Virus record (IMG/VR): IMGVR_UViG_3300008117_000445
Span: 1 to 64,000 of that record
Length of the DNA stretch: 64,000 nucleotides
Direction: 5' to 3' (one strand)
Source of the DNA: a virus
Shown here: in pieces, positions 1-9,690 of the stretch
Layout: each line of letters starts with the position of its first letter
Position numbering within the stretch: the first letter of the stretch is position 1
Notes under the pieces: generated by a model
What the model was told of the DNA's origin: nothing
The model's database searches: none
The model's input: only the letters and a program-made list of their open reading frames with translations
Translations under genes and position numbers: made by a program

Positions 1-13
1 ATTTAATCAAAAA

Positions 14-45
14 AATTTGACACTTTTTATAATATCAATATATTT
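14..45 (+). promoter_or_regulatory. Bacteroidetes-type sigmaA promoter (TTTG -33 / TAtaTTTA -7)
   Basis: TTTGacactttttataatatcaaTATATTTA; same architecture repeated at 410-445, 590-632, 735-776. Confidence 0.35.
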
Positions 46-76
46 ATATATTATAAATAATAAATCAAAAAAAACG

Positions 77-406
77 ATGAAAAAAATAGTTAGACTAACT
101 GAAAGAGATTTAACAAGAATTGTTAAACGAGTAATTAAAGAAAGTAACCTTAGCCCATATAGTGATGAAGATATGGCCGAAGACGAAAGACTTGACAGAA
201 TATCAAATGAATGGCGAGATTCATTTTATGATGCTTTTGATTTTGACTTTGAAGGTGCATTTCCAGAATACAATAAAGAATCAGATAAATTTGATGATAA
301 TTTAAATGATTTTATTGTTGATATGATGGGTGAAGACCCAGAACATGCTGTTAGAGTGTTACGTAAAGAACCTTGGTTTAGACCATATGTAAAATATCTT
401 AGATAA
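77..406 (+). CDS. hypothetical protein; N-terminus MKKIVRLTERDLTRIVKRVIKE resembles the shared leader family
   Basis: ORF 17..406 in track; internal Met at aa21 follows promoter; acidic C-terminal half. Confidence 0.45.
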   Translation: MKKIVRLTERDLTRIVKRVIKESNLSPYSDEDMAEDERLDRISNEWRDSFYDAFDFDFEGAFPEYNKESDKFDDNLNDFIVDMMGEDPEHAVRVLRKEPWFRPYVKYLR

Positions 407-409
407 AAA

Positions 410-445
410 ACTTGACACTTTTAAAATTATTAGTATATTTATAAA
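410..445 (+). promoter_or_regulatory. Bacteroidetes-type promoter (TTG ... TAtaTTTA)
   Basis: cTTGacacttttaaaattattagTATATTTAtaaaac, near-duplicate of the promoter at 14-45. Confidence 0.35.
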
Positions 446-589
446 ACAAAATAAAAAACCGCAAATGAAAAATTTACACATATCATTGATAGGAGGCGAT
501 TTAGCTGAGGCAACTTTCAAGGAGAGGGTGTAAGATTTTATACATATATAAAGGTTCTTTGACATATTGGTTTGAATTAAAAAAAATTA

Positions 590-632
590 AAAAAAGATTT
601 GGTGGATTAAAAAATTCTACATATCTTTGTAA
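590..632 (+). promoter_or_regulatory. strong Bacteroidetes-type promoter with A-rich UP-like element
   Basis: aaaaattaaaaaaagaTTTGgtggattaaaaaattctacaTAtcTTTGtaag; 20-nt spacer between TTTG and TAnnTTTG. Confidence 0.45.
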
Positions 633-734
633 GACAAAACGGTTTAGAAGTTAATTGCCTGATTATACAGTAATCCTCCCATCCACAGGCAGAAAGGAGG
701 TAAACAACTAAACCAAAAAAAAATTAAAAAAAGA

Positions 735-776
735 TTTGGTAGATTCAAAAATATTTTATAATTTTGTAGAACAAAC
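735..776 (+). promoter_or_regulatory. strong Bacteroidetes-type promoter with A-rich UP-like element (tandem copy)
   Basis: aaaattaaaaaaagaTTTGgtagattcaaaaatattttaTAatTTTGtagaac; direct repeat of the 590-632 unit. Confidence 0.45.
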
Positions 777-779
777 AAC

Positions 780-815
780 GGAGGTGGAGATGTTAGGGAT
801 GGTAACTCCACCTCC
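780..815 (+). other. perfect 10-bp stem-loop (GGAGGTGGAG ... CTCCACCTCC) immediately downstream of promoter
   Basis: inverted repeat read directly; candidate 5' structure of a short transcript / sRNA. Confidence 0.4.
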
Positions 816-839
816 GGAGATAGGGAAAGTTCATTGACA

Positions 840-1240
840 TATTAAAATATTGTGGTTGTAAGAAAGGGGAAACTCGTTAAGTTCATCAACCAGTTGACTC
901 AAGATGGTGAAACGAGAGTGTGGGTCAACTACTGAATCACAAAAAAACATTATAATGCGAGGGGGAGGTATAGTATCTCATCGGTCTCATAAGTCGACTT
1001 AACTTGATGCGATTTCAAGCCTACGCAACTAATAGGATGGATAGGTGGAAGGGCCTTTCCTGAAAGACGGCTTGCTAGGCCCGTGTCCATCCTTAAAAAA
1101 TTGATAGTGATCACCTCTACAGTGGTTGTCGACAAACTACGTAGGTTGAGGGTAGATAACACCCACTGCCGGTGCACCATAAAACTTAGGAAGGCAGTTA
1201 AGATTGGAAATAGGAGGGTACACCAACACTATCAACATTA
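840..1240 (+). ncRNA. ORF-free, GC-enriched, highly structured RNA segment of unknown family
   Basis: nested inverted repeats (AACTCGTT/AACGAGAG; AGTTGAC/GTCAACT), no credible ORF, lies between promoters and tRNAs. Confidence 0.3.
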
Positions 1241-1243
1241 TTT

Positions 1244-1317
1244 ACTGATGTAGCTCAATCGGTGAGTACGAGGTGTTCATACCTCAAGGTTATGGGTTCA
1301 AGTCCCTTCATCAGTAC
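1244..1317 (+). tRNA. tRNA, anticodon uncertain (loop reads UGUUCAUA: 8 nt as transcribed; GTT or TCA possible)
   Basis: acceptor ACTGATG/CATCAGT perfect 7 bp, D-arm GCTC..GAGT, T-arm ATGGG-TTCAAGT-CCCTT. Confidence 0.55.
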
Positions 1318-1319
1318 TG

Positions 1320-1900
1320 GGAGTGTACACAGTAGAGTTCAGCTTGAGAACAGATGTAACACACACTTTAAAGGGGGTTACAAGGTGTTAAGCCGTTTAT
1401 CAGATTTGGTCGTTAAAATCTGCCGTTGTTGATGAGATAGGTTTAACGTATAAACTTTCCTCCGTGATGTTAGTGGGTTTGATCACCCCTTTCACGTAAA
1501 TGTGATGAAACGAAACCCAAAGGAGTAGTCACAACTTGCGGGTATAGCATAAAATTAATGCTTCGCCATCTATCCGCTCAAAATGAAACAACAGAAGACG
1601 AATTAGCGTCGTTGAAAGGAACCTTGGCTCTCACAAGATCGCAACTTTTACTGAGAGTTGGAATGCCCCAAGGTACTCTGTTCAGATCCCTGCTCTGATG
1701 TGCACGTCAACAGGTTATGGGGAACAAACCATAAGTAAAAATCGTAGAAATGTTTCATTCTTATTAAATGGGAAAGAGATGCCCGAAGTTTTTAAGTTTC
1801 CTTCATAAAAACTTAACGAGAGTGGTACTAACGCGTGAAAATAGTACTCATTGGGAATCGGTTTGGAATATCCTCCTCTCCCCCAAGTATAAGGATTGAC
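1320..1900 (+). ncRNA. ORF-free structured RNA segment (unknown; not tRNA)
   Basis: many local hairpins (e.g. GCGGGTA...TATCCGC mini-helix at ~1541-1583), no ORF, GC-enriched. Confidence 0.25.
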
Positions 1901-1902
1901 TT

Positions 1903-1978
1903 TTTTAAAGGGGATGCCCAGCAGGTTTTTGAAAAAGAAAAACCGATGTAACTACTCACCAGTAATCTCAAGGTGGGG
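1903..1978 (+). ncRNA. conserved ~75-nt element, copy 1 (GGGGATGCCCrGCAGGTTTTT...AAAAACCGAT.T.ACTACTC...)
   Basis: near-identical second copy at 8647-8722; contains GGTTTTT/AAAAACC hairpin. Confidence 0.4.
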
Positions 1979-1984
1979 AAATTT

Positions 1985-2061
1985 GGGGGTGTAGCTCAAT
2001 TGGCTGAGCGGCTCGTTTGCAACGAGAGGGTTTTATGTGGGTTCAAGTCCCACCTCCTCCA
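1985..2061 (+). tRNA. tRNA-Ala (anticodon UGC)
   Basis: acceptor GGGGGTG/CTCCTCC with G3:U70 Ala identity pair; D-arm GCTC-AATTGGCT-GAGC; anticodon loop TTTGCAA; T-arm GTGGG-TTCAAGT-CCCAC. Confidence 0.75.
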
Positions 2062-2156
2062 CAAAGTTCGGAGTAATTAACCGAACCTAACAAGAAGATG
2101 GGTCATATAGCCTAAGGAAATTTGGTACCACTAATTCCTGTCTGTCTTCTTGATTA

Positions 2157-2233
2157 ACTACTTATGGTGTAAATTGGATTGCACATCGGTCACTAAGGCC
2201 GAAGGGTTGTAGGTTCAAGTCCTATGGGTAGTT
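2157..2233 (+). tRNA. tRNA-like gene; anticodon loop reads CACUAAG (CUA in anticodon position: amber-suppressor-like), lacks U33
   Basis: acceptor CTACTTA/TGGGTAG (2 G:U), anticodon stem TCGGT/GCCGA, T-arm GTAGG-TTCAAGT-CCTAT. Confidence 0.4.
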
Positions 2234-2240
2234 CAAATAG

Positions 2241-2357
2241 TCAGGTGGCGAGAGGAACACGCCCCGAAAGTGGAGAGTAACAATACCAACGGGACTCACG
2301 GAGATACTGCGTCCACTGCTGATGGTATCTATCACCGGTTTAAATCCGGTCCTGACT
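2241..2357 (+). tRNA. atypical long (117 nt) tRNA-like gene, acceptor AGTCAGG/CCTGACT
   Basis: perfect 7-bp acceptor, D-arm GGCG-AGAGGAACA-CGCC, T-arm CCGG-TTTAAAT-CCGG, ~35 extra nt between D- and T-arms. Confidence 0.3.
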
Positions 2358-2524
2358 ACATGAAGGTAAAAATATGAAACTTGGTAGTTCTTGTGGATTA
2401 TGATTACCCTGAATGTTTTTACAACTTTCATTCAGAAACCAAAAAATAAATGTTGTTGCAGGTTTAATAAAGGAATGGAGGAAAGTCTAACTAACGAGTA
2501 CTTCATAACCTACTGTATAAAATA

Positions 2525-2609
2525 GTCAGGTGGCGGAATTGGAAGACGCTATCCATTGGAAAGGCTGAGTTAAAAACGGCATTCAAGGTTCAAATCCTTG
2601 CCTGACTAC
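2525..2609 (+). tRNA. 85-nt tRNA-like gene (type-II-sized), acceptor AGTCAGG/CCTGACT; loop TTGGAAA (GGA, Ser-like) but anticodon stem does not pair as read
   Basis: perfect acceptor and T-arm CAAGG-TTCAAAT-CCTTG; shares 5' 15 nt and 3' end with the 2241-2357 gene. Confidence 0.35.
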
Positions 2610-2708
2610 AATCAGTTGCTTGATTCCTGGTAGTAGAGTAACAACCATTGGGATATTCGGGAAAATTCCGTGAATGGTGGTGTAAGATATAAAAGGGAAA
2701 CTTACAAT

Positions 2709-2781
2709 GGTGGAGTACCAAAGACAAAGGAAACGAGACATATGGGTGATCATATGTTGGCGCAAATCTCCACCTTTTTAA
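2709..2781 (+). terminator. stem-loop plus T-run (rho-independent terminator-like)
   Basis: GGTGGAG...CATATGGGTGATCATATG...CTCCACC followed by TTTTTAAATT. Confidence 0.4.
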
Positions 2782-2792
2782 ATTAAAAAATT

Positions 2793-2981
2793 ATGACACT
2801 AAAAGAACAAATTAATGCCGACTTTATGTCCGCATTTAAGAACAAAGAAATGGATAAGAAAAACTTCCTTGGAGTTGTTAAAGGTGAAATCCAAAATGAA
2901 GAAGGAAGGAGTGGGACCGTAACTGATGAGGTTGTTTTGTCCATCTTAAAGAAAATAAACCACCCATCGGCTAAAGACCAA
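2793..2981 (+). pseudogene. yqeY: 5' fragment of yqeY-like (GatB/YqeY-domain) gene, truncated by the IS insertion
   Basis: MTLKEQINADFMSAFKNKEMDKKNFLGVVKGEIQNEEGRSGTVTDEVVLSILKKI matches the YqeY N-terminal consensus (M.LKE.I..D.K.A.KAKDK.....L..A.KNEEI..G..LTDEEVL.VIKK); ORF then runs into IS sequence. Confidence 0.5.
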
Positions 2982-4385
2982 TGGGTTTTGTAGGATTAAT
3001 CCTAACTGGGTGGTTTATAACACCGCTTACATCCGTAAGAGATAAATCTCCATCAGATTTACTTTTATATTTTCTTAATATATTACAAGCACCATTCACA
3101 TCAGCATTAATTAATTTACCTTTTTTTGTTCTAAATAAACCTCGTTTAATGCGTTTACCTAAATATTCTTCGTGTTTCTCTATTTTTTCCAAATCCAACG
3201 ACGAACATTTTGATGTGTATGATTCTTCCTGTAGAACATAATTAATTCCGTAATATTCACATTTTGTTTCTAATTTTCTTTTTAAAATACCAAATGGTAC
3301 CGAAACAAAGTTCTGATTATTTACTTTACCGATATTAATTTCATTTTTCATACCTTTAAAATCACCTATAACTATTGTACCAATATCGTTATTAATACAA
3401 TATTTAACTATTTTATTCACACTCTGATTAAAGTAGTTATTTATATAATTTTTTCTATATTCACTTAATTTAATAAATTTTTTTGTGTTTTTATCTTTTA
3501 ATTTATTTTTTTCATATTCACTTTGTAATCTAGCTTTTTCTTTATTGTAATGATGGTTTACAGATTTAAGTGGTTTACCATCTATAATAAATGATGATTT
3601 ATTTTTAGTGTTATAAGATGTCAAAAGATTATCCAATCCACAATCAATACTTAATATATTATTATGGTTTAATTTCTTTACATTATCTTCAGCAACATAT
3701 GTTATAATTAACTCATACTCTTTACCACCATAAATGGGTTTAATCTGTAATTGTTGTAATTTATTGGTTTTAATATTTTTCGGTAGGTTAAATATGATAT
3801 CACGTTTTAATACATTATATTCTTCTCTAAATTGTTTACTAAGACCCATATATATTTTACCATTTTTAACCCTAGAACTTCTACCGGCAACTAATACTGA
3901 CCACCCAGAATCCTTATCTAAATAAGATGGGACATTAACCGGATTAGAGTACTTACCTTTTTGTTTTAATTTAAGTAATGAGAAAAATGATTTAAAATTT
4001 CTATCAACTAACCTATGTGTTTGTTGTGCGGAGTCTGTTATAAGTAATTTATAGTTCACATCATCTTTAATTAAATGATATTGATCAACATAATTTAAAT
4101 AAGAATTATTATTAAAGTAATACTGTCTAATGTTATAAACACAACTATTATATAAACGAGCAGAATGATATGATAACTTATCTATAATAAATTTTTCATC
4201 TTCATTCAATTTAAGTTTATATTTTTGTGTTAACATCATAATCTCCTATATATAAATATAGGGAAAGTGTGAAAAAACTTGTTTTATATAAAAAAAATAT
4301 TATATTTTAATCATTAACTAAAACATAAAGAAGGAAAAGTGATTCGTTTCCTCCCACAAACTAAAGATTTGTGGGTTTCCACGAA
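2960..4385 (-). mobile_element. IS200/IS605-family element, TnpB-only (IS1341-like), no tnpA
   Basis: tnpB ORF plus subterminal imperfect hairpins: CCCACAAActaaagaTTTGTGGG at 4349-4371 (left end) and CCACCCA...TGGGTGG near 2960-3015 (right end); flanked by the two yqeY fragments. Confidence 0.6.
2971..4239 (-). CDS. tnpB: TnpB/OrfB RNA-guided endonuclease (IS605 family)
   Basis: RuvC-I ILSIDCGLDNLLT, RuvC-III NADVNGACNILRK (DxDxNAAxNI consensus), C-terminal Cys/His zinc-finger region, N-terminal QKYKLKLNEDEK typical of OrfB. Confidence 0.75.
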   Translation of the reverse strand: MMLTQKYKLKLNEDEKFIIDKLSYHSARLYNSCVYNIRQYYFNNNSYLNYVDQYHLIKDDVNYKLLITDSAQQTHRLVDRNFKSFFSLLKLKQKGKYSNPVNVPSYLDKDSGWSVLVAGRSSRVKNGKIYMGLSKQFREEYNVLKRDIIFNLPKNIKTNKLQQLQIKPIYGGKEYELIITYVAEDNVKKLNHNNILSIDCGLDNLLTSYNTKNKSSFIIDGKPLKSVNHHYNKEKARLQSEYEKNKLKDKNTKKFIKLSEYRKNYINNYFNQSVNKIVKYCINNDIGTIVIGDFKGMKNEINIGKVNNQNFVSVPFGILKRKLETKCEYYGINYVLQEESYTSKCSSLDLEKIEKHEEYLGKRIKRGLFRTKKGKLINADVNGACNILRKYKSKSDGDLSLTDVSGVINHPVRINPTKPIGL

Positions 4386-4496
4386 TTAAAAATTATGAAT
4401 AACATTGGTCAAATAATGGGTGAGTTCAACAAACATTACAAAGGTTTGGTTGATAACAAACTGGTGAGTCAAATAACAAAGGAGATTTTAAATTAA
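4360..4496 (+). pseudogene. yqeY: 3' fragment of yqeY-like gene (resumes right after IS left end)
   Basis: FVGFHELKIMNNIGQIMGEFNKHYKGLVDNKLVSQITKEILN matches YqeY C-terminus (..SMKDMGKVMG.LM.K.KG.ADGKLVNQLVKEKL); central ~50 aa of YqeY missing. Confidence 0.45.
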
Positions 4497-4518
4497 TATA
4501 TTGTTTTTGTTTAATTAA

Positions 4519-4551
4519 AAAAGGAGACCAAATTAATGATCTCCTTTTTTT
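4519..4551. terminator. bidirectional rho-independent terminator
   Basis: AAAAAAGGAGAccaaattaatgaTCTCCTTTTTTTTT between the convergent yqeY fragment and the tail-fibre gene. Confidence 0.6.
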
Positions 4552-4570
4552 TTGATATTAACTAAGTTGA

Positions 4571-7500
4571 TTAGTTTGTACCTTTTTCACCGTAAACAAG
4601 GATTTTATTTCCTGTTAATGGTGGAACTGTAAACGTAACAACTGTTCCGTCAAATGTATAGTCTTCAGTCTCTGTTTGACCAAGACCATTCAACATCACA
4701 AGTTCAGTTCCAATGATGATTTCATCATTCAAAGTGAACGCTGAGATTACACCATTTGGAGTTCCAGCATATCCAATTCTTTGGAATGAATTTGTATCCA
4801 GACCAGCAATCGCATCATCAACATATAGTTTTGTAACCAACGTTAAATCATCAAACTGAGTCAATCCAGATGGTTGAGCTGTCAATCTAATATTATCAGA
4901 CATTGTTAAACCTGTTGTATAGAACTCAGCAAGGTTTGATCTGTTGTTGTTATCAGCACCATTACCAATAATTGCAAGTTGAGTGTCACCAGATACGTTA
5001 AATGTTCCTTGAACGTGTTGTGCTCTACCTGCTGCAATTGTTCCTTCACCTTCAGCATGCGAATAATCGCTTGTCCTTCAGCGTGAGAATATAATCCAGA
5101 TGCGATTGTTGAAGCACCTTCAGCGTGAGAATATAATCCAGATGCCGTTGTATTATAACCTTCAGCGTGAGAATAATATCCAGATGCCGTTGTTAAATAT
5201 CCTTCAGCGTGAGAATAATTTCCTAATGCCGTTGTTGCATAACCTTCAGCGTGAGACATATCACCAACAGAAGTTGTATTAAATCCTTCAGCGTGAGAAC
5301 CAACACCAATTGCATAACCTCCAGCAAAATCATTAGCTTGATCTCCACCTTCTGCGTGAGAGTTAACACCTTCAGCTATTGTTTTGTATCCTTCAGCGTG
5401 AGAAGCATATCCTGATGCCGTTGTTGTATTACCTTCAGCGTGAGAAACATATCCGGACGCCGTTGTTGATCTACCTTCAGCGTGAGAATAATTTCCAGAT
5501 GCCGTTGTGTAATAACCTTCAGCGTGAGAACCTAAACCAACAGAAGTCGTCTGAATACCTTCAGCGTGAGAACCATACCCGGAGGCTGTTGTAGATGAAC
5601 CTTCAGCGTGAGAATAATTTCCAGATGCAGTTGTAGAATTACCTTCAGCGTGAGAACTTTGACCCAATGCCGTTGTGTAATTACCTTCAGCGTGAGAATA
5701 ATTTCCAGATGCCGTTGTCTGAATACCTTCGGCGTGAGAAGCACTACCTATAGCTACTGAGTAATTACCTTCAGCGTGAGAACCATTACCAACAGAAGTT
5801 GTCTGAATACCTTCAGCGTGTGAACTTTGACCCAATGCCGTTGTTCCAATACCTTCAGCATGAGAATAATATGCGGATGCTGTCGTTAAAGAACCTTCAA
5901 CGTGAGAATGATATCCAGATGCCGTTGTTAATCTACCCTCAGCGTGAGAATAATTTCCAGATGCCGTTGTTCCTTCACCTTCAGCGTGAGAATAATTTCC
6001 AGACGCAACGGTATTATAACCTGACGCAGTTGAATTTAAACCACTTGCCGTTGAACCAGTTGTTCCAAGAACGATTGAACCCTCAAATGTTCTGGTACCA
6101 CCACTATTTGCTGCAACAACTTGTTTTAACTCAAGTTTGTTATCACCATTTACAATTACGGTAACACCATCAGCATCAGCAAGACCATCAATTTCATTTT
6201 CTAATGATGTGTCAGCACTTGCTCTTACACTTTCTTCAGTTGAAACTCTTGAATCCAATGATCCTTCCGCACTTTCTGCTCTTGAAGTTTCAGAAGAAAC
6301 TTTTGAATCTAATGAGCCTTCAGCAGATTCTGCTCTTGAAGTTTCCGTAGAAACTTTTGAATCTAATGAACCTTCAGCTGACTCAGCTCTACTAACTTCT
6401 TGAGAAATTAAAGCTTCAAGTGAATCGTCACCTGATTCGTTACTTGAAATTCTCGCAGATAATGAATCTTCAGCTGACTCCGCTCTTGAAGTTTCTGTAG
6501 ATACTTTACTGTCTAAAGAACTATCAGCAGATTCTCTGTTTGAAACCTCAGTAGAAATATCAGATGAAATCTTAGAATCCAATGAACCTTCAACACTTTC
6601 AGCTCTTGACGTTTCGTTAGAAACTTTTGAATCTAATGAAGTTTCAGCTGAATCTCTTTTACTTTCTTCAGTTGAAATTCTGGACTCAAGCGAATCTTCA
6701 GTACTTTCCGCTCTTGATGTTTCTGTAGAAACTTTTGAATCCAAAGAACCTTCAGCGGATTCCGCTCTACTAACTTCTTGAGAAATTAAAGCTTCAAGTG
6801 AATCATCACCAGATTCGTTTTGAGAAATTCTAGCAGATAATGAATCTTCAGCAGATTCTGCTCTACTTGTTTCAGAAGATACTTTACTGTCTAATGAACC
6901 TTCAGCAGATTCTGCTCTTGAAATCTCGTTAGAAACTTTTGAATCCAATGAACCTTCAGTAGATTCTGCCCTTGAAGTCTCGTTAGAAACTTTTGAATCT
7001 AATGATCCTTCAGCACTTTCAGCTCTACTTGTTTCGTTAGAAACTTTTGAATCCAAAGAACTATCAGCAGATTCTCTGTTTGAAGTTTCAGAAGAAACTT
7101 TTGAATCCAAAGAACTATCAGCAGATGCTCTGTTACTTTCTTCAGTAGATACTCTAGAATCTAATGAACCTTCAGCAGATTCTGCTCTTGATGTTTCTTG
7201 AGAAATCAACGCTTCCAATGAATCATCACCTGATTCGTTACTTGAAATTCTTGCAGATAATGAATCTTCAGCAGACTCAGCTCTACTTGTTTCGTTAGAA
7301 ACTTTTGCATCCAATGAATCGTCACCAGAAACTCTGTTTGAAATCTCAGCAGAAATTTCAGAAGAAATTTTTGAATCTAATGATCCTTCAGCACTTTCAG
7401 CTCTTGAAGTTTCAGTTGAAACTTTTGCATCCAATGAATCGTCAGCAGATTCTCTTGTACTTTCTTCAACAGATACTCTGTCGGTTAATGAGCCTTCAGC

Positions 7501-7818
7501 CGATTCGGCTCTTGATACTTCAGACGATAAGTCTGCTTCAAGAGAATCATTACCTGATACTCTGTTTGAGATTTCAGTTGAAATCTCGGATGAAATTTTG
7601 TTATCCAATGAACCTTCAGCTGATGTTGCTCTGGACGTTTCATTTGATACTTTCGCATCCAATGAAGCATCACCAGAGATTCTGCTAGAATCCTGACTGG
7701 ATAAGGTTGAACTTAACTCCGCGATATCCGTAATTGTTAAACCGGATGGAGTTAAAATCGTTGCGTTCGTCAGCAATAAGTCGGACTGACGGTCTAATAC
7801 AATTTTAGTTTCTGCCAT
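4571..7818 (-). CDS. tail-fibre / adhesin-like repeat protein (~1080 aa if read through); frame broken at ~5055-5080 inside the repeat array
   Basis: N-terminal ~36 x 14-aa repeats (SRAESAEGSLDSKVSxET), then ~28 x 14-aa Hep_Hag/YadA-head-like repeats (TTASGNYSHAEGxx, 42-nt DNA period), then non-repetitive C-terminus in frame of ORF 4571..4903; one repeat unit is 26 nt instead of 42. Confidence 0.6.
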
Positions 7819-7894
7819 TTTTTAATTTTTAAAATGATAGTTTATTCTGTATCTCTTTATACAGCATGTTTTTCTGGATACGTATATACATACG

Positions 7895-7930
7895 GATATG
7901 TGATATGTGATATTGGATATGTGATATAGA
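7895..7930. repeat. short tandem GATATGT heptamer repeats upstream of tail-fibre gene
   Basis: GATATGTGATATGTGATATTGGATATGTGATATAGATA; adjacent inverted repeat CCGCAT...ATGCGG at 7941-7975. Confidence 0.4.
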
Positions 7931-8091
7931 TACTAGTTACCCGCATCCCTGCCGATACATTATATAAATATGCGGTACTTTACAAAAAGTCACTAATTGT
8001 TTAATTTTTTTTTAAAAAAAATAAAAAAATGAGTTTTTTGTTGTTAATATCATTTATTTCAATTATATTTGTTGTCAGAAAAAAGAAATAA

Positions 8092-8198
8092 GGTCAGAAG
8101 CGTAATGCGGGACGGTACCCAAACCCTCAAGACACCACGGTCCAAGAGCAATTTGGACGCGAGAAGTTATAAGGTTGCATATTGTTGGTTCAAATCCA
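8092..8198 (+). tRNA. atypical long (107 nt) tRNA-like gene, acceptor GGTCAGA/TCTGACC
   Basis: perfect 7-bp acceptor, T-arm GTTGG-TTCAAAT-CCAAC; internal arms not resolvable by eye. Confidence 0.3.
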
Positions 8199-8226
8199 AC
8201 TCTGACCTCAAAAAAATTAAAATAAG

Positions 8227-8511
8227 ATGAAAGAAAAACATCAAGAAGCCATTGATGAAATTATGGATTGGTTTGACTTTGAAAGAGTTGTCAAAGTAAT
8301 GGAGTTTTTAAACTGGAAGTGGATTACCGCCGAAGAAGGTGTACCCAGTATTGGTGAAATCAAAAAAACGGCCAGACGATTATTAAAAGAAGCGATTAAA
8401 AAGAAAACATCAATTGCAACCGGAGGATTCAAGGTGACTTATTTACCAAAAGAAGATTTTTTACATCTTGAATTTGTTATTAGTGAGTTTGATGCTGTAA
8501 TCAAAAAGTAA
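8227..8511 (+). CDS. hypothetical protein
   Basis: 94-aa ORF between two tRNA-like genes. Confidence 0.45.
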   Translation: MKEKHQEAIDEIMDWFDFERVVKVMEFLNWKWITAEEGVPSIGEIKKTARRLLKEAIKKKTSIATGGFKVTYLPKEDFLHLEFVISEFDAVIKK

Positions 8512-8553
8512 CCACTTGACTTATTAAATATTGTTTGTTATAATTATATAGAA

Positions 8554-8632
8554 AGTCAGTTAGCTCAACTGGTAGAGCAATCCCCAACCCTAAGAAGGGG
8601 ACGTGCCGTAGGTTCAAGTCCTTCACTGACTT
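8554..8632 (+). tRNA. tRNA; anticodon arm TCCCC-AACCCTAAGAA-GGGGA (11-nt loop, or 7-nt CCCUAAG closed by A.A pairs: CUA, amber-suppressor-like)
   Basis: acceptor AGTCAGT/ACTGACT perfect, D-arm GCTC-AACTGGTA-GAGC canonical, T-arm GTAGG-TTCAAGT-CCTTC. Confidence 0.5.
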
Positions 8633-8646
8633 CACTTTTTCAATAA

Positions 8647-8722
8647 GGGGATGCCCGGCAGGTTTTTCAACTGGAAAAAACCGATATGACTACTCCTCGT
8701 TATCTTTAAGAGGGGGTGATAT
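8647..8722 (+). ncRNA. conserved ~75-nt element, copy 2
   Basis: GGGGATGCCCGGCAGGTTTTTcaactggAAAAAACCGATATGACTACTC... aligns with 1903-1978. Confidence 0.4.
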
Positions 8723-8732
8723 AGATACAAAA

Positions 8733-8760
8733 AAAGGGACTTTATTGTCCCTTTTTTTTG
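8733..8760. terminator. bidirectional rho-independent terminator
   Basis: AAAAAAAGGGACtttattGTCCCTTTTTTTT. Confidence 0.65.
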
Positions 8761-9690
8761 TTAGATACTTAATAACATATCCATTAATTCTTGTTGTGGA
8801 AACATATCCACCTTGTCACGTCTTGTATTTGTGTGGGTATACATTCCCTTAACTCTACCATAATAAGCATTCTCATTAAATTCAAAACCACCAGCACCAT
8901 TCTTTCTTATTTCCTCAATCAACCCCTTTCTTACATCAATGTTATCTCTATTTGCAATAAATAAGATAAGATCTTTTAATACTTCCAACTGAGTGTCAGA
9001 ATATCTATGCCAGGTTTTATGACCTCTAAATGGTTTATCCAATGTGGTAACGTGAGATTCAATTACTTCACCACCACCGTAGTTATAGAATTTATTGGCA
9101 TCTTTTGCTACCCAGGTTTTTCCCTTTCTATAACCACCTTTAGTTACATAACCATAATTACATACTTCAATACCAACGGAACATTTGTGCATATGCATTG
9201 AACCGTTATCACCCAAATGCCAACCATAACCACCATCCGGTATACATTTAACTATTTCACCATCATATTGGTCGTTCTTTCCGTTACAAGCAGGACCACC
9301 CAATACAAACTCAGTTGCGATTCTACCTCTGGTGTCCTTTGCCCACATATCAACCACTTGGTATGGGTTTGGTCCACCGGCCGTGTGATGCAAGAACAAA
9401 TATTCTTTATCTGTTGGTCCGGCCAAATATTCATCCTTTGGTAAAAAATATTGTTTGAATGACAATGTTTCGTTGTCTGAATTAAATTGTTCATTTAGAT
9501 CAGTTGTTGCAAGTCCCATCGCTTCCCAAGTTTTTGGTCCAACAATTCCATCATCTTTTAACTTATTTTCTTTTTGCCATTTTTTAACGGCCGCTTCGGT
9601 TTTTGGTCCAAAGTCACCATCATCACTAAGTTTTAAAAATCTTTGCAAGATTTTCACATTTTCTCCTTTACTTCCAAGTTTTAAAATCAT
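8761..9690 (-). CDS. endolysin: N-terminal peptidoglycan-binding repeats + N-acetylmuramoyl-L-alanine amidase (Amidase_2/PGRP-like)
   Basis: two PG_binding_1-like repeats (LKLSDDGDFGPKTEAAVKKWQ; LKDDGIVGPKTWEAMG); HHTAGG... and H/C-rich catalytic region. Confidence 0.6.
   Translation of the reverse strand: MILKLGSKGENVKILQRFLKLSDDGDFGPKTEAAVKKWQKENKLKDDGIVGPKTWEAMGLATTDLNEQFNSDNETLSFKQYFLPKDEYLAGPTDKEYLFLHHTAGGPNPYQVVDMWAKDTRGRIATEFVLGGPACNGKNDQYDGEIVKCIPDGGYGWHLGDNGSMHMHKCSVGIEVCNYGYVTKGGYRKGKTWVAKDANKFYNYGGGEVIESHVTTLDKPFRGHKTWHRYSDTQLEVLKDLILFIANRDNIDVRKGLIEEIRKNGAGGFEFNENAYYGRVKGMYTHTNTRRDKVDMFPQQELMDMLLSI

Follow-up and report, generated by a model that had tools for sequence, protein, structure and literature searches.

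We analyzed a 64,000-nt stretch of viral DNA (positions 1 to 64,000 of the IMG/VR record IMGVR_UViG_3300008117_000445, below called the window) from a freshwater jumbo phage, and found that its yqeY gene, which is non-essential and related to translation, is interrupted by a complete 1,440-bp insertion sequence (IS) of the IS200/IS605 family, located on the minus strand at 2955-4394 and carrying tnpB as its only gene. The whole is best explained, with a probability of roughly 0.8, by a non-autonomous, tnpB-only (IS1341-type) element that entered yqeY and is now a stranded passenger in this phage lineage.

Boundaries, ends and target of the element

The boundaries were set by copies of the element elsewhere (L039, L043, L046, L047, L048, L129, L131, L148 and others) and against intact yqeY alleles; only bases 2955-2956 (AT) are ambiguous, since they fit the right end and the Met56 codon of yqeY alike. 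Read in the sense of tnpB, and with a slash for the boundary, family copies start TTCAT/AATTTTTAATTCGTGGAAA-CCCACAAA-TCTTTAG-TTTGTGGG and end ...CAAAA-CCCATTGG-TCTTTAG-CCGATGGG-TGGTTTAT/, after which unrelated flanks follow. No further copies of these ends were found in the window.

The left end, defined by alignment of seven family left ends, spans 155 nt (4240-4394, minus strand) and is made up of a 19-nt linker, a subterminal hairpin, an AT-rich stretch and, just before the tnpB ATG, the palindrome CCTATATTTATATATAGG (4252-4269, minus strand). This palindrome is invariant in all family left ends and could be an operator, a promoter or a structure in the 5' untranslated region. The hairpin (4343-4385, minus strand) consists of an inner stem CCCACAAA/TTTGTGGG at 4353-4375, closed by the loop TCTTTAG, and an outer 5-bp helix in which 4381-4385 pairs with 4343-4347. 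All cells (100%) are paired in the seven sequences and five pairs show compensatory changes, giving a covariation of 0.476 vs 0.149 in shuffles, and pairing drops to ~40% once the partners are slid. A first reading of the window from its letters alone (the original prediction) had recognized the inner stem, but placed it 4 nt off, at 4349-4371.

At the right end, the subterminal hairpin CCCATTGG-TCTTTAG-CCGATGGG (2963-2985, minus strand) has the same loop as its left-end counterpart and shows compensatory changes in four stem pairs across the family. The tnpB stop codon TAG (2971-2973) lies within the loop, and the 8 nt TGGTTTAT lead from the hairpin to the terminus. The original prediction had instead proposed a pairing of CCACCCA with TGGGTGG; it is present in the window copy, but most family members have the mismatched TGGGTAG, and it was rejected as the right-end hairpin in favor of the covarying structure at 2963-2985. 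The spacers between cleavage site and hairpin are 19 nt at the left end and 8 nt at the right end, similar to those of IS608.

The left end is flanked by the pentanucleotide TTCAT (4395-4399, minus strand), a candidate target and target-adjacent motif (TAM), which ends all nine of nine distinct left-end flanks in the family. On the plus strand it reads ATGAA and forms the yqeY codons Met99-Asn100, and ATGAATAAC is native yqeY sequence in the relatives P0121 and L152. The terminus GTTTAT is conserved and the sequence diverges right after it into 14 distinct right-end flanks, a count that shows mobility of the family even though some flank pairs are possibly assembly chimeras. The right-end flanks are unrelated to the left-end flanks, i.e. 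there is no target-site duplication. A conserved short motif 5' of the element had been expected and was found, although it is TTCAT and not TTAC-like.

The interrupted yqeY gene

On the plus strand, window positions 2793-2957 match positions 1-53 of the Pfam family PF09424 and 4395-4496 match positions 111-143, which confirms that the two flanking open reading frames (ORFs) are the N- and C-terminal parts of a YqeY protein. Positions 54-110 of the domain are missing, an insert of 1,440 bp divides the gene and no single ORF covers the full domain (~130-148 aa). The 5' fragment (codons 1-54, 2793-2954) has 64-87% amino acid identity to the intact YqeY of 29 viral loci, and the 33 residues of the 3' fragment (codons 99-131 plus stop codon, 4395-4496) are 100% identical to the C-terminus (MNNIGQIMGEFNKHYKGLVDNKLVSQITKEILN) of the intact YqeY P0121. 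The mechanically called 5' ORF extends to 2993 (66 aa) because 12 codons read into the right end of the element (INHPSAKDQWVL), and the listed 3' ORF, from a GTG at 4371, has its start within the left end.

Intact yqeY is the rule among relatives. Of the 29 IMG/VR loci with a protein related to the N-terminal fragment, all 29 have it as a single ORF of 130-136 aa, and more than 30 related phages, P0121, P0122 and L152 included, have an intact gene of 130-141 aa. In the closest relative with DNA (L152/L153) the flanks are ~93-95% identical, as counted from the alignment, and yqeY is uninterrupted. A search of 5.8 billion proteins returned 363 YqeY homologs, and the 120 that were listed are all full-length (130-149 aa). 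DNA homology to the relatives ends at 2956 and restarts at 4395, with 129 bp (codons 56-98, 43 residues) replaced by the 1,440 bp of the element and with both junctions at methionine codons, AAA ATG GAA (Met56) and GGC ATG AAT (Met99). Since the gene is interrupted and codons 56-98 are gone, yqeY is a pseudogene. That the element interrupts yqeY and that central residues are lost was correctly foreseen; the event was not a simple insertion, since the 129-bp deletion accompanies it, and the loss amounts to 43 rather than about 50 residues.

By inspection of the sequence, the two yqeY flanks join in frame (LKK/MNNIGQ). This would suit an intron-like element (an IStron or a group I intron) that restores YqeY by splicing, or a yqeY that naturally consists of two ORFs, yet we consider the probability of either to be close to nil. 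Any splice would still leave 43 conserved codons lost, tnpB is antisense to yqeY, and an 88-aa in-frame YqeY, which could also have been a pre-insertion allele, was not found among the matches listed (120 of the 363 homologs). No group I/II intron or other ribozyme matched at E<=1 in an Rfam scan of window positions 1-9000, which gave tRNAs and freshwater-1 RNA only, and the group I intron/IStron candidate was rejected on this basis. A natural two-ORF gene, which would have refuted the original prediction, conflicts with the single intact ORF of all 29 viral relatives and of the closest relative, L152/L153.

At least 25 contigs from many freshwater metagenomes (L033-L038 and L133-L141 among them) carry the identical TnpB between the same flanks, and therefore the disrupted allele is fixed in a widespread lineage in which yqeY is dispensable. 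Short YqeY-like ORFs that end at about codons 35-60 and continue into unrelated tails were also seen in P0246, P0248 and P0253, one of them on a 24-kb contig. It may be that yqeY was disrupted independently in other phage lineages, but those short ORFs that lie on tiny contigs may be truncation artefacts.

A TnpB with a rearranged RuvC-II motif

The tnpB coding sequence (2971-4239, minus strand) encodes 422 aa, and its assignment rests on Pfam (OrfB_IS605, 2.3e-18; Cas12f1-like_TNB, 1.2e-10), on fold and on alignment to homologs. An AlphaFold model (mean pLDDT 82) matches AsCas12f, ISDra2 TnpB, ISFba1 TnpB and Fanzor2 with TM values of 0.6-0.7. At the level of sequence, Cas12f was the only match among PDB entries (phmmer and profile search), and ISDra2 TnpB was reached by the fold search alone. 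The minus-strand ORF is consequently a TnpB, as had been proposed.

The RuvC-I motif SIDCGLD and the RuvC-III motif NADVNGACNI are both present as originally described, and their aspartates, D199 (in SIDCGLD) and D380 (in NADVNG), are invariant in 21 homologs of 54-100% identity. Catalytic residues are therefore in place, although RuvC-II is rearranged. Profile alignment puts the canonical RuvC-II glutamate (beta-4) at G292, in TIVIGDFKG vs TIQMEDLTG of Cas12f, and an alternative and invariant glutamate pair, E338/E339 (in LQEESYTS), is found in the next predicted strand (beta-5), ~46 residues past G292. The possibility that E339 is itself the canonical residue was ruled out by the same alignment. 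The zinc finger that had been claimed for this protein is absent: residues 340-380 contain a single cysteine, C345, and no CxxC...CxxC arrangement, so that a C4 zinc finger cannot be formed, and C345 is the lone cysteine of this region in all close homologs. The protein is full length, with no truncation of the C-terminus, and dN/dS values of 0.14, 0.18 and 0.10 against homologs of 98%, 90% and 81% identity indicate that the TnpB family is under purifying selection.

Altae-Tran et al. (2023, PNAS, PMC10691335) described RuvC-II-rearranged TnpB clades in which glycine occupies the canonical position and a compensating glutamate lies in beta-5. These clades were judged likely active, their RIIr-4 branch is virus-enriched, and loss of the zinc finger was reported for some large TnpB branches. 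The RIIr-3, -4 and -5 clades have the same glycine in place of the canonical glutamate and the alternative glutamate in the next beta-strand, a match that holds at class level. The window TnpB fits this rearranged class, in a zinc-finger-less form, and its predicted activity follows from conservation of the residues named above.

Loss of both the canonical RuvC-II glutamate and the zinc finger, together with an allele that is fixed in one lineage and a protein that is 100% identical across many samples, could also be taken to mean that TnpB has been domesticated, being TldR-like or otherwise exapted and serving the phage as an RNA-guided regulator or binder that no longer moves. We regard this as very improbable. 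The same family, with identical ends, occurs next to 14 different right-end flanks, D199, E338/E339 and D380 are invariant in a class judged active (PMC10691335), the C-terminus is untruncated, and the occupied locus is a destroyed gene rather than a regulatory position.

The predicted omega-RNA and its guide

Across 13 family members the final ~100 nt before the terminus are near-invariant, even at synonymous sites, while the coding sequence upstream is free to vary. RNAalifold folds this region into 39 pairs, eight of which have changes on both sides, an internal helix at ~3038-3051 covaries inside the tnpB coding region, and the single-sequence fold has a z of -2.8. No Rfam family matched the region. 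Conservation and two helices with compensatory changes delimit a core that, with the right end, spans 2955-3058 (minus strand). Such a conserved structured RNA, lying over the 3' end of tnpB and ending exactly at the right-end terminus, fits a predicted omega-RNA scaffold. An omega-RNA on the minus strand at ~2950-3100, with a guide from the adjacent yqeY sequence, had been anticipated, and both conservation and covariation are in line with this.

By analogy with the established TnpB/omega-RNA architecture, the 20 nt of flank directly past the terminus, TTTCTTTAAGATGGACAAAA (2935-2954, minus strand), would make up the guide; this segment is antisense to yqeY codons 48-54. Within the window this segment matches its own site only, apart from two 3-mismatch matches at chance level. 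Among 31 intact yqeY alleles examined, 18 have Met56 at this position, and all 18 show TTTTCCAT, i.e. TCCAT and not TTCAT. The nearest intact allele departs from the guide at two positions, 1 and 10, and more distant alleles have 4-10 mismatches.

The established role of TnpB is a selfish one, in retention of the element and in homing at TAM-flanked empty sites (PMC10055086, PMC13565253), and such homing has been framed as "non-restorative transposon homing" (PMC13565253). The window copy could accordingly be pictured as an active device for homing and competition between phages, where TnpB, directed by the yqeY-derived guide, cuts the intact yqeY of co-infecting related phages and the element-bearing genome serves in repair and converts them, by non-restorative transposon homing or by marker exclusion like that of the free-standing T4 Seg/Mob endonucleases. 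Several observations suit this picture: the guide runs antisense to a part of yqeY that is conserved, intact (L152, L153) and disrupted (L134, L136) alleles occur in the same sampling series (KRAE22-1, JGI Ga04803xx), TnpB is catalytically plausible and under purifying selection, and deletion of codons 56-98 would render the carrier immune; the concept itself is in the literature (PMC13565253). Set against this are the TCCAT of all 18 Met56 alleles vs the TTCAT of nine of nine family flanks and the guide mismatches (positions 1 and 10 in the nearest allele, 4-10 mismatches in distant ones). Because the guide faces TCCAT in Met56 alleles and has two mismatches to the nearest of them, active homing into yqeY is unlikely.

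Mobilization and origin of the window copy

No tnpA accompanies the element, as originally stated: only 155 nt separate its left boundary from the tnpB ATG, and the window as a whole contains none (Pfam scan of 52 ORFs; tblastn with phage Y1 TnpA). A possible source of transposase is seen in L006 (IMGVR_UViG_3300043466_002526), a related phage with an intact yqeY, which has a complete IS605 in its tRNA cluster at 1890-4080. It encodes a Y1 TnpA (2377-2826, minus strand; Pfam Y1_Tnp 9e-33) and a canonical zinc-finger TnpB (2878-4074), and carries a p129-like phage gene as an apparent passenger (1978-2316, minus strand). Its left-end-type hairpin (1911-1933) and right-end-type hairpin (4049-4071) have the loop TCTTTAG as in the window element, and one of them comprises 27 nt identical to window positions 4352-4378. 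These same-loop hairpins make trans-mobilization within the phage population plausible. Bacterial relatives of the window TnpB that adjoin a Y1 TnpA were found in L175 and L224.

We propose that a Y1 TnpA acting in trans would have inserted the element into single-stranded DNA 3' of the TTCAT at Met99, and that a later deletion of 129 bp beside the right end, up to the Met56 codon, would have arisen between ...TAT and ...CCAT via a 2-nt AT microhomology. In the family at large, TnpB with its omega-RNA would be a selfish nuclease for retention and homing that cuts TTCAT-flanked sites matching the guide, whereupon recombination would copy the element back in. After the deletion the guide would face TCCAT in intact alleles, which would probably leave the window copy as a stranded, vertically inherited passenger.

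We infer insertion at Met99 followed by a deletion on the right-end side because this makes the fewest assumptions. Alternatively, two insertions, one at each of Met99 and Met56, could have recombined with one another, or the element could have integrated at a non-canonical TCCAT, followed by an event on the left-end side.

Some points weigh against the passenger scenario or its details. The order of insertion and deletion is the most parsimonious one, and the intermediate allele (YqeY 1-98 with a read-through tail from the right end), which would fix that order, was not found among the 5.8 billion proteins; the remaining short YqeY ORFs are cut off at contig ends or disrupted in unrelated ways. 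The pairs L046/L047 and L129/L131 each share a right-end flank and differ in their left-end flanks, with identity that begins exactly at TTCAT. They could indicate rearrangements on the left-end side or, equally, assembly chimeras across the repeat, and since short-read assemblies can mis-join across a 1.4-kb repeat, we did not use them as evidence on the left-end mechanism. The IS605 of L006 has a right end of ...GTTCAC and lacks a TTCAT at 19 nt before its left hairpin, and because these end-proximal bases differ its TnpA is possibly not the cognate one. Further, TCCAT may be tolerated by the window TnpB, and the omega-RNA, the TAM and the nuclease activity of the element are themselves all inferred.

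Distribution and insertion sites of the family

A protein search gave thousands of TnpB homologs, ~100 of them at 60-98% identity. The contigs that encode close homologs look phage-like, with Mom, N6_N4 methyltransferase, dNMP kinase, sulfotransferase and glycosyltransferase modules. Among 185,579 bacterial and archaeal species (one genome each) the best relative is 54% identical and the others are at most 46%, mostly from cyanobacteria and Firmicutes. Close relatives were not found in GenBank phages either (none above 43% amino acid identity), and an exact-peptide scan of IMG/VR gave no match. A profile scan of IMG/VR recovered one relative at 69% and many at 50% or below. TnpB relatives are encoded in more than 521 IMG/VR stretches and 40 GenBank phage records, and tnpB genes in phages have already been discussed in the literature, so the suggestion that a TnpB in a phage is itself notable was overstated. 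A second tnpB copy was not found in the window.

Among copies elsewhere, a 98%-identical one (L129) sits at an APS-kinase/SET locus, for which L003 was considered as the empty site and rejected, the loci being too different (an extra SET gene and a shorter APS kinase). In L039 the joined flanks rebuild an ATGA stop/start overlap, ...TTT/ATGAAC, which indicates a clean insertion. At six of the nine distinct left-end sites, a gene of 63-243 codons on the opposite strand has as its start codon the reverse complement of the CAT in TTCAT. In the window 62 of 379 ATGAA sites (16%) resemble start codons, which gives an estimated binomial P of ~1e-3 for six of nine, and ATGAA starts 21 of 48 window genes (44%). 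The start-codon sites are most simply read as survivorship: where a phage genome is densely coding, an insertion lasts only if it falls at a gene boundary, and many gene starts happen to be marked by TTCAT.

With its sequence GAATTAAAAATT/ATG, the outer left end looks similar to native leaders, for instance the yqeY leader (AAATTAAAAAATT/ATG). A more ambitious interpretation, which we offer tentatively and consider doubtful as a whole, is that of an IS lineage adapted to phages. TTCAT would then match, as reverse complement, the start context most common in the host phages (ATGAA), with copies fitting between leader and ATG, and the A/T-rich GAATTAAAAATT/ATG would stand in for the leader in a Bacteroidota-type translation that lacks Shine-Dalgarno sequences. 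Both a Y1 TnpA borrowed from IS605 copies in phages and RNA-guided homing would spread the lineage among co-infecting jumbo phages, and its portable homology would reshuffle phage modules, explaining the discontinuities of left-end flanks.

Comparison with known systems

The element has the tested defining features of the IS200/IS605 family, tnpB-only (IS1341) type. It shares with the models of this group, IS608 of H. pylori and ISDra2 of D. radiodurans, the subterminal hairpins without terminal inverted repeats and the insertion 3' of a fixed short target without duplication of it (TTCAT here, TTAC in IS608, TTGAT in ISDra2). The guide-RNA scaffold lies over the tnpB 3' end and ends at the right-end terminus as in other IS200/IS605 elements, and tnpA is absent as in IS1341-type copies. 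Unlike those models, the window element is phage-borne, its closest bacterial or archaeal relative being 54% identical, and its TnpB has a rearranged RuvC-II and no zinc finger. Also unlike them, six of nine family left-end sites coincide with the ATG of a gene, and the window copy has a 129-bp deletion in its flank.

A nuclease gene between or inside conserved phage genes near tRNAs is also found in the T-even phages, with the free-standing homing endonucleases SegB, SegF and Mob, and in non-restorative transposon homing (PMC13565253). A potential to cut the nuclease-less allele during co-infection is shared with SegB, SegF and Mob, but in the window target recognition would be RNA-guided, and the TAM it needs is missing in intact alleles, which makes homing doubtful. 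IStrons, chimeras of a group I intron with IS605 or IS607 (PMC10690162), likewise place a TnpB-bearing element inside a protein-coding gene. The window element differs from them: it lacks a ribozyme, its tnpB runs antisense to the interrupted gene, and that gene cannot be restored.

The locus and the source phage

Directly upstream of yqeY, and as originally noted beside the element, lies a cluster of tRNA genes with a freshwater-1 RNA (1244-2609, plus strand; ARAGORN and Rfam). The freshwater-1 motif (1679-1740, plus strand) is located between tRNA genes and is a full-length Rfam match with 70.3 bits and E = 4.5e-15, slightly below the gathering score of 72. Several tRNA-like genes on the plus strand are odd (1244-1317, 2157-2234, 2239-2358, 2524-2609 and 8554-8632); one has a CTA (amber-reading) anticodon, two have an anticodon that ARAGORN left unnamed, one is a 120-nt tRNA-like match and another has a 12-nt insert in the anticodon region. 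Introns or stop-codon suppression may be the cause. In L133 (5719-7266) and L135 (5699-6519), strains 98-99.7% identical to the window, the tRNA cluster contains an extra IS607-type unit in which a second TnpB accompanies a serine recombinase (Resolvase). This unit is absent from the window (its place would be left of 1595). The second TnpB shares 40% identity with that of the window and likewise has glycine at the canonical RuvC-II position.

The Pfam scan found CHU_C/T9SS, SprB and PKD domains encoded in the window, and the starts of 48 plus-strand genes show no Shine-Dalgarno signal and have A/T-rich leaders, which together point to a Bacteroidota host. TAnnTTTG-like motifs stand immediately before the ATG in several window genes.

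The genes p110 and p970 (4571-7818, minus strand) are missing from L004/L008, in which yqeY adjoins a homolog of window positions 8042-8493. In L152 the same block lies beside a yqeY that is intact, and L003 has it in a different setting. The p970 protein is highly repetitive and tail-fibre-like (SRAESAEGSLDSKVS and SHAEG repeats), and its final ~50 aa are non-repetitive and 94% conserved in L001. This switch at the C-terminus of p970 may reflect a frameshift or a fusion with p110. Farther along, window positions 10000-63000 encode the anti-defence proteins Acb1, Acb3 and Tad6, a free-standing GIY-YIG/I-TevI-ZnF/NUMOD3 homing endonuclease, a Clp protease, a thymidylate synthase, an RNA ligase and RNA-repair domains (HAD_SAK_2, cREC_REC).

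Significance

The element belongs to a known transposon family and its TnpB to a published rearranged-active-site class, i.e. it is not a new kind of system. Modestly new are the sub-family's apparent restriction to phages, a target that coincides with start codons, and a rearranged nuclease that lacks the zinc finger and comes with many natural guides. Mobile DNA has a hot spot around the tRNA genes and yqeY: the window has its IS1341-type element there and sister phages have IS607- and IS605-type elements, a picture to which the GIY-YIG endonuclease elsewhere in the window also contributes.

Taken together, our results describe a cleanly delimited natural TnpB element with exact ends, the candidate TAM TTCAT, a scaffold of ~100 nt and a nuclease of 422 aa. 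Its family is apparently confined to freshwater phage genomes and offers hundreds of variants and many natural guides to compare. This makes it useful for understanding the mechanism of rearranged-active-site TnpB proteins, possibly for compact editors, and for understanding how IS200/IS605 elements persist in compact viral genomes.

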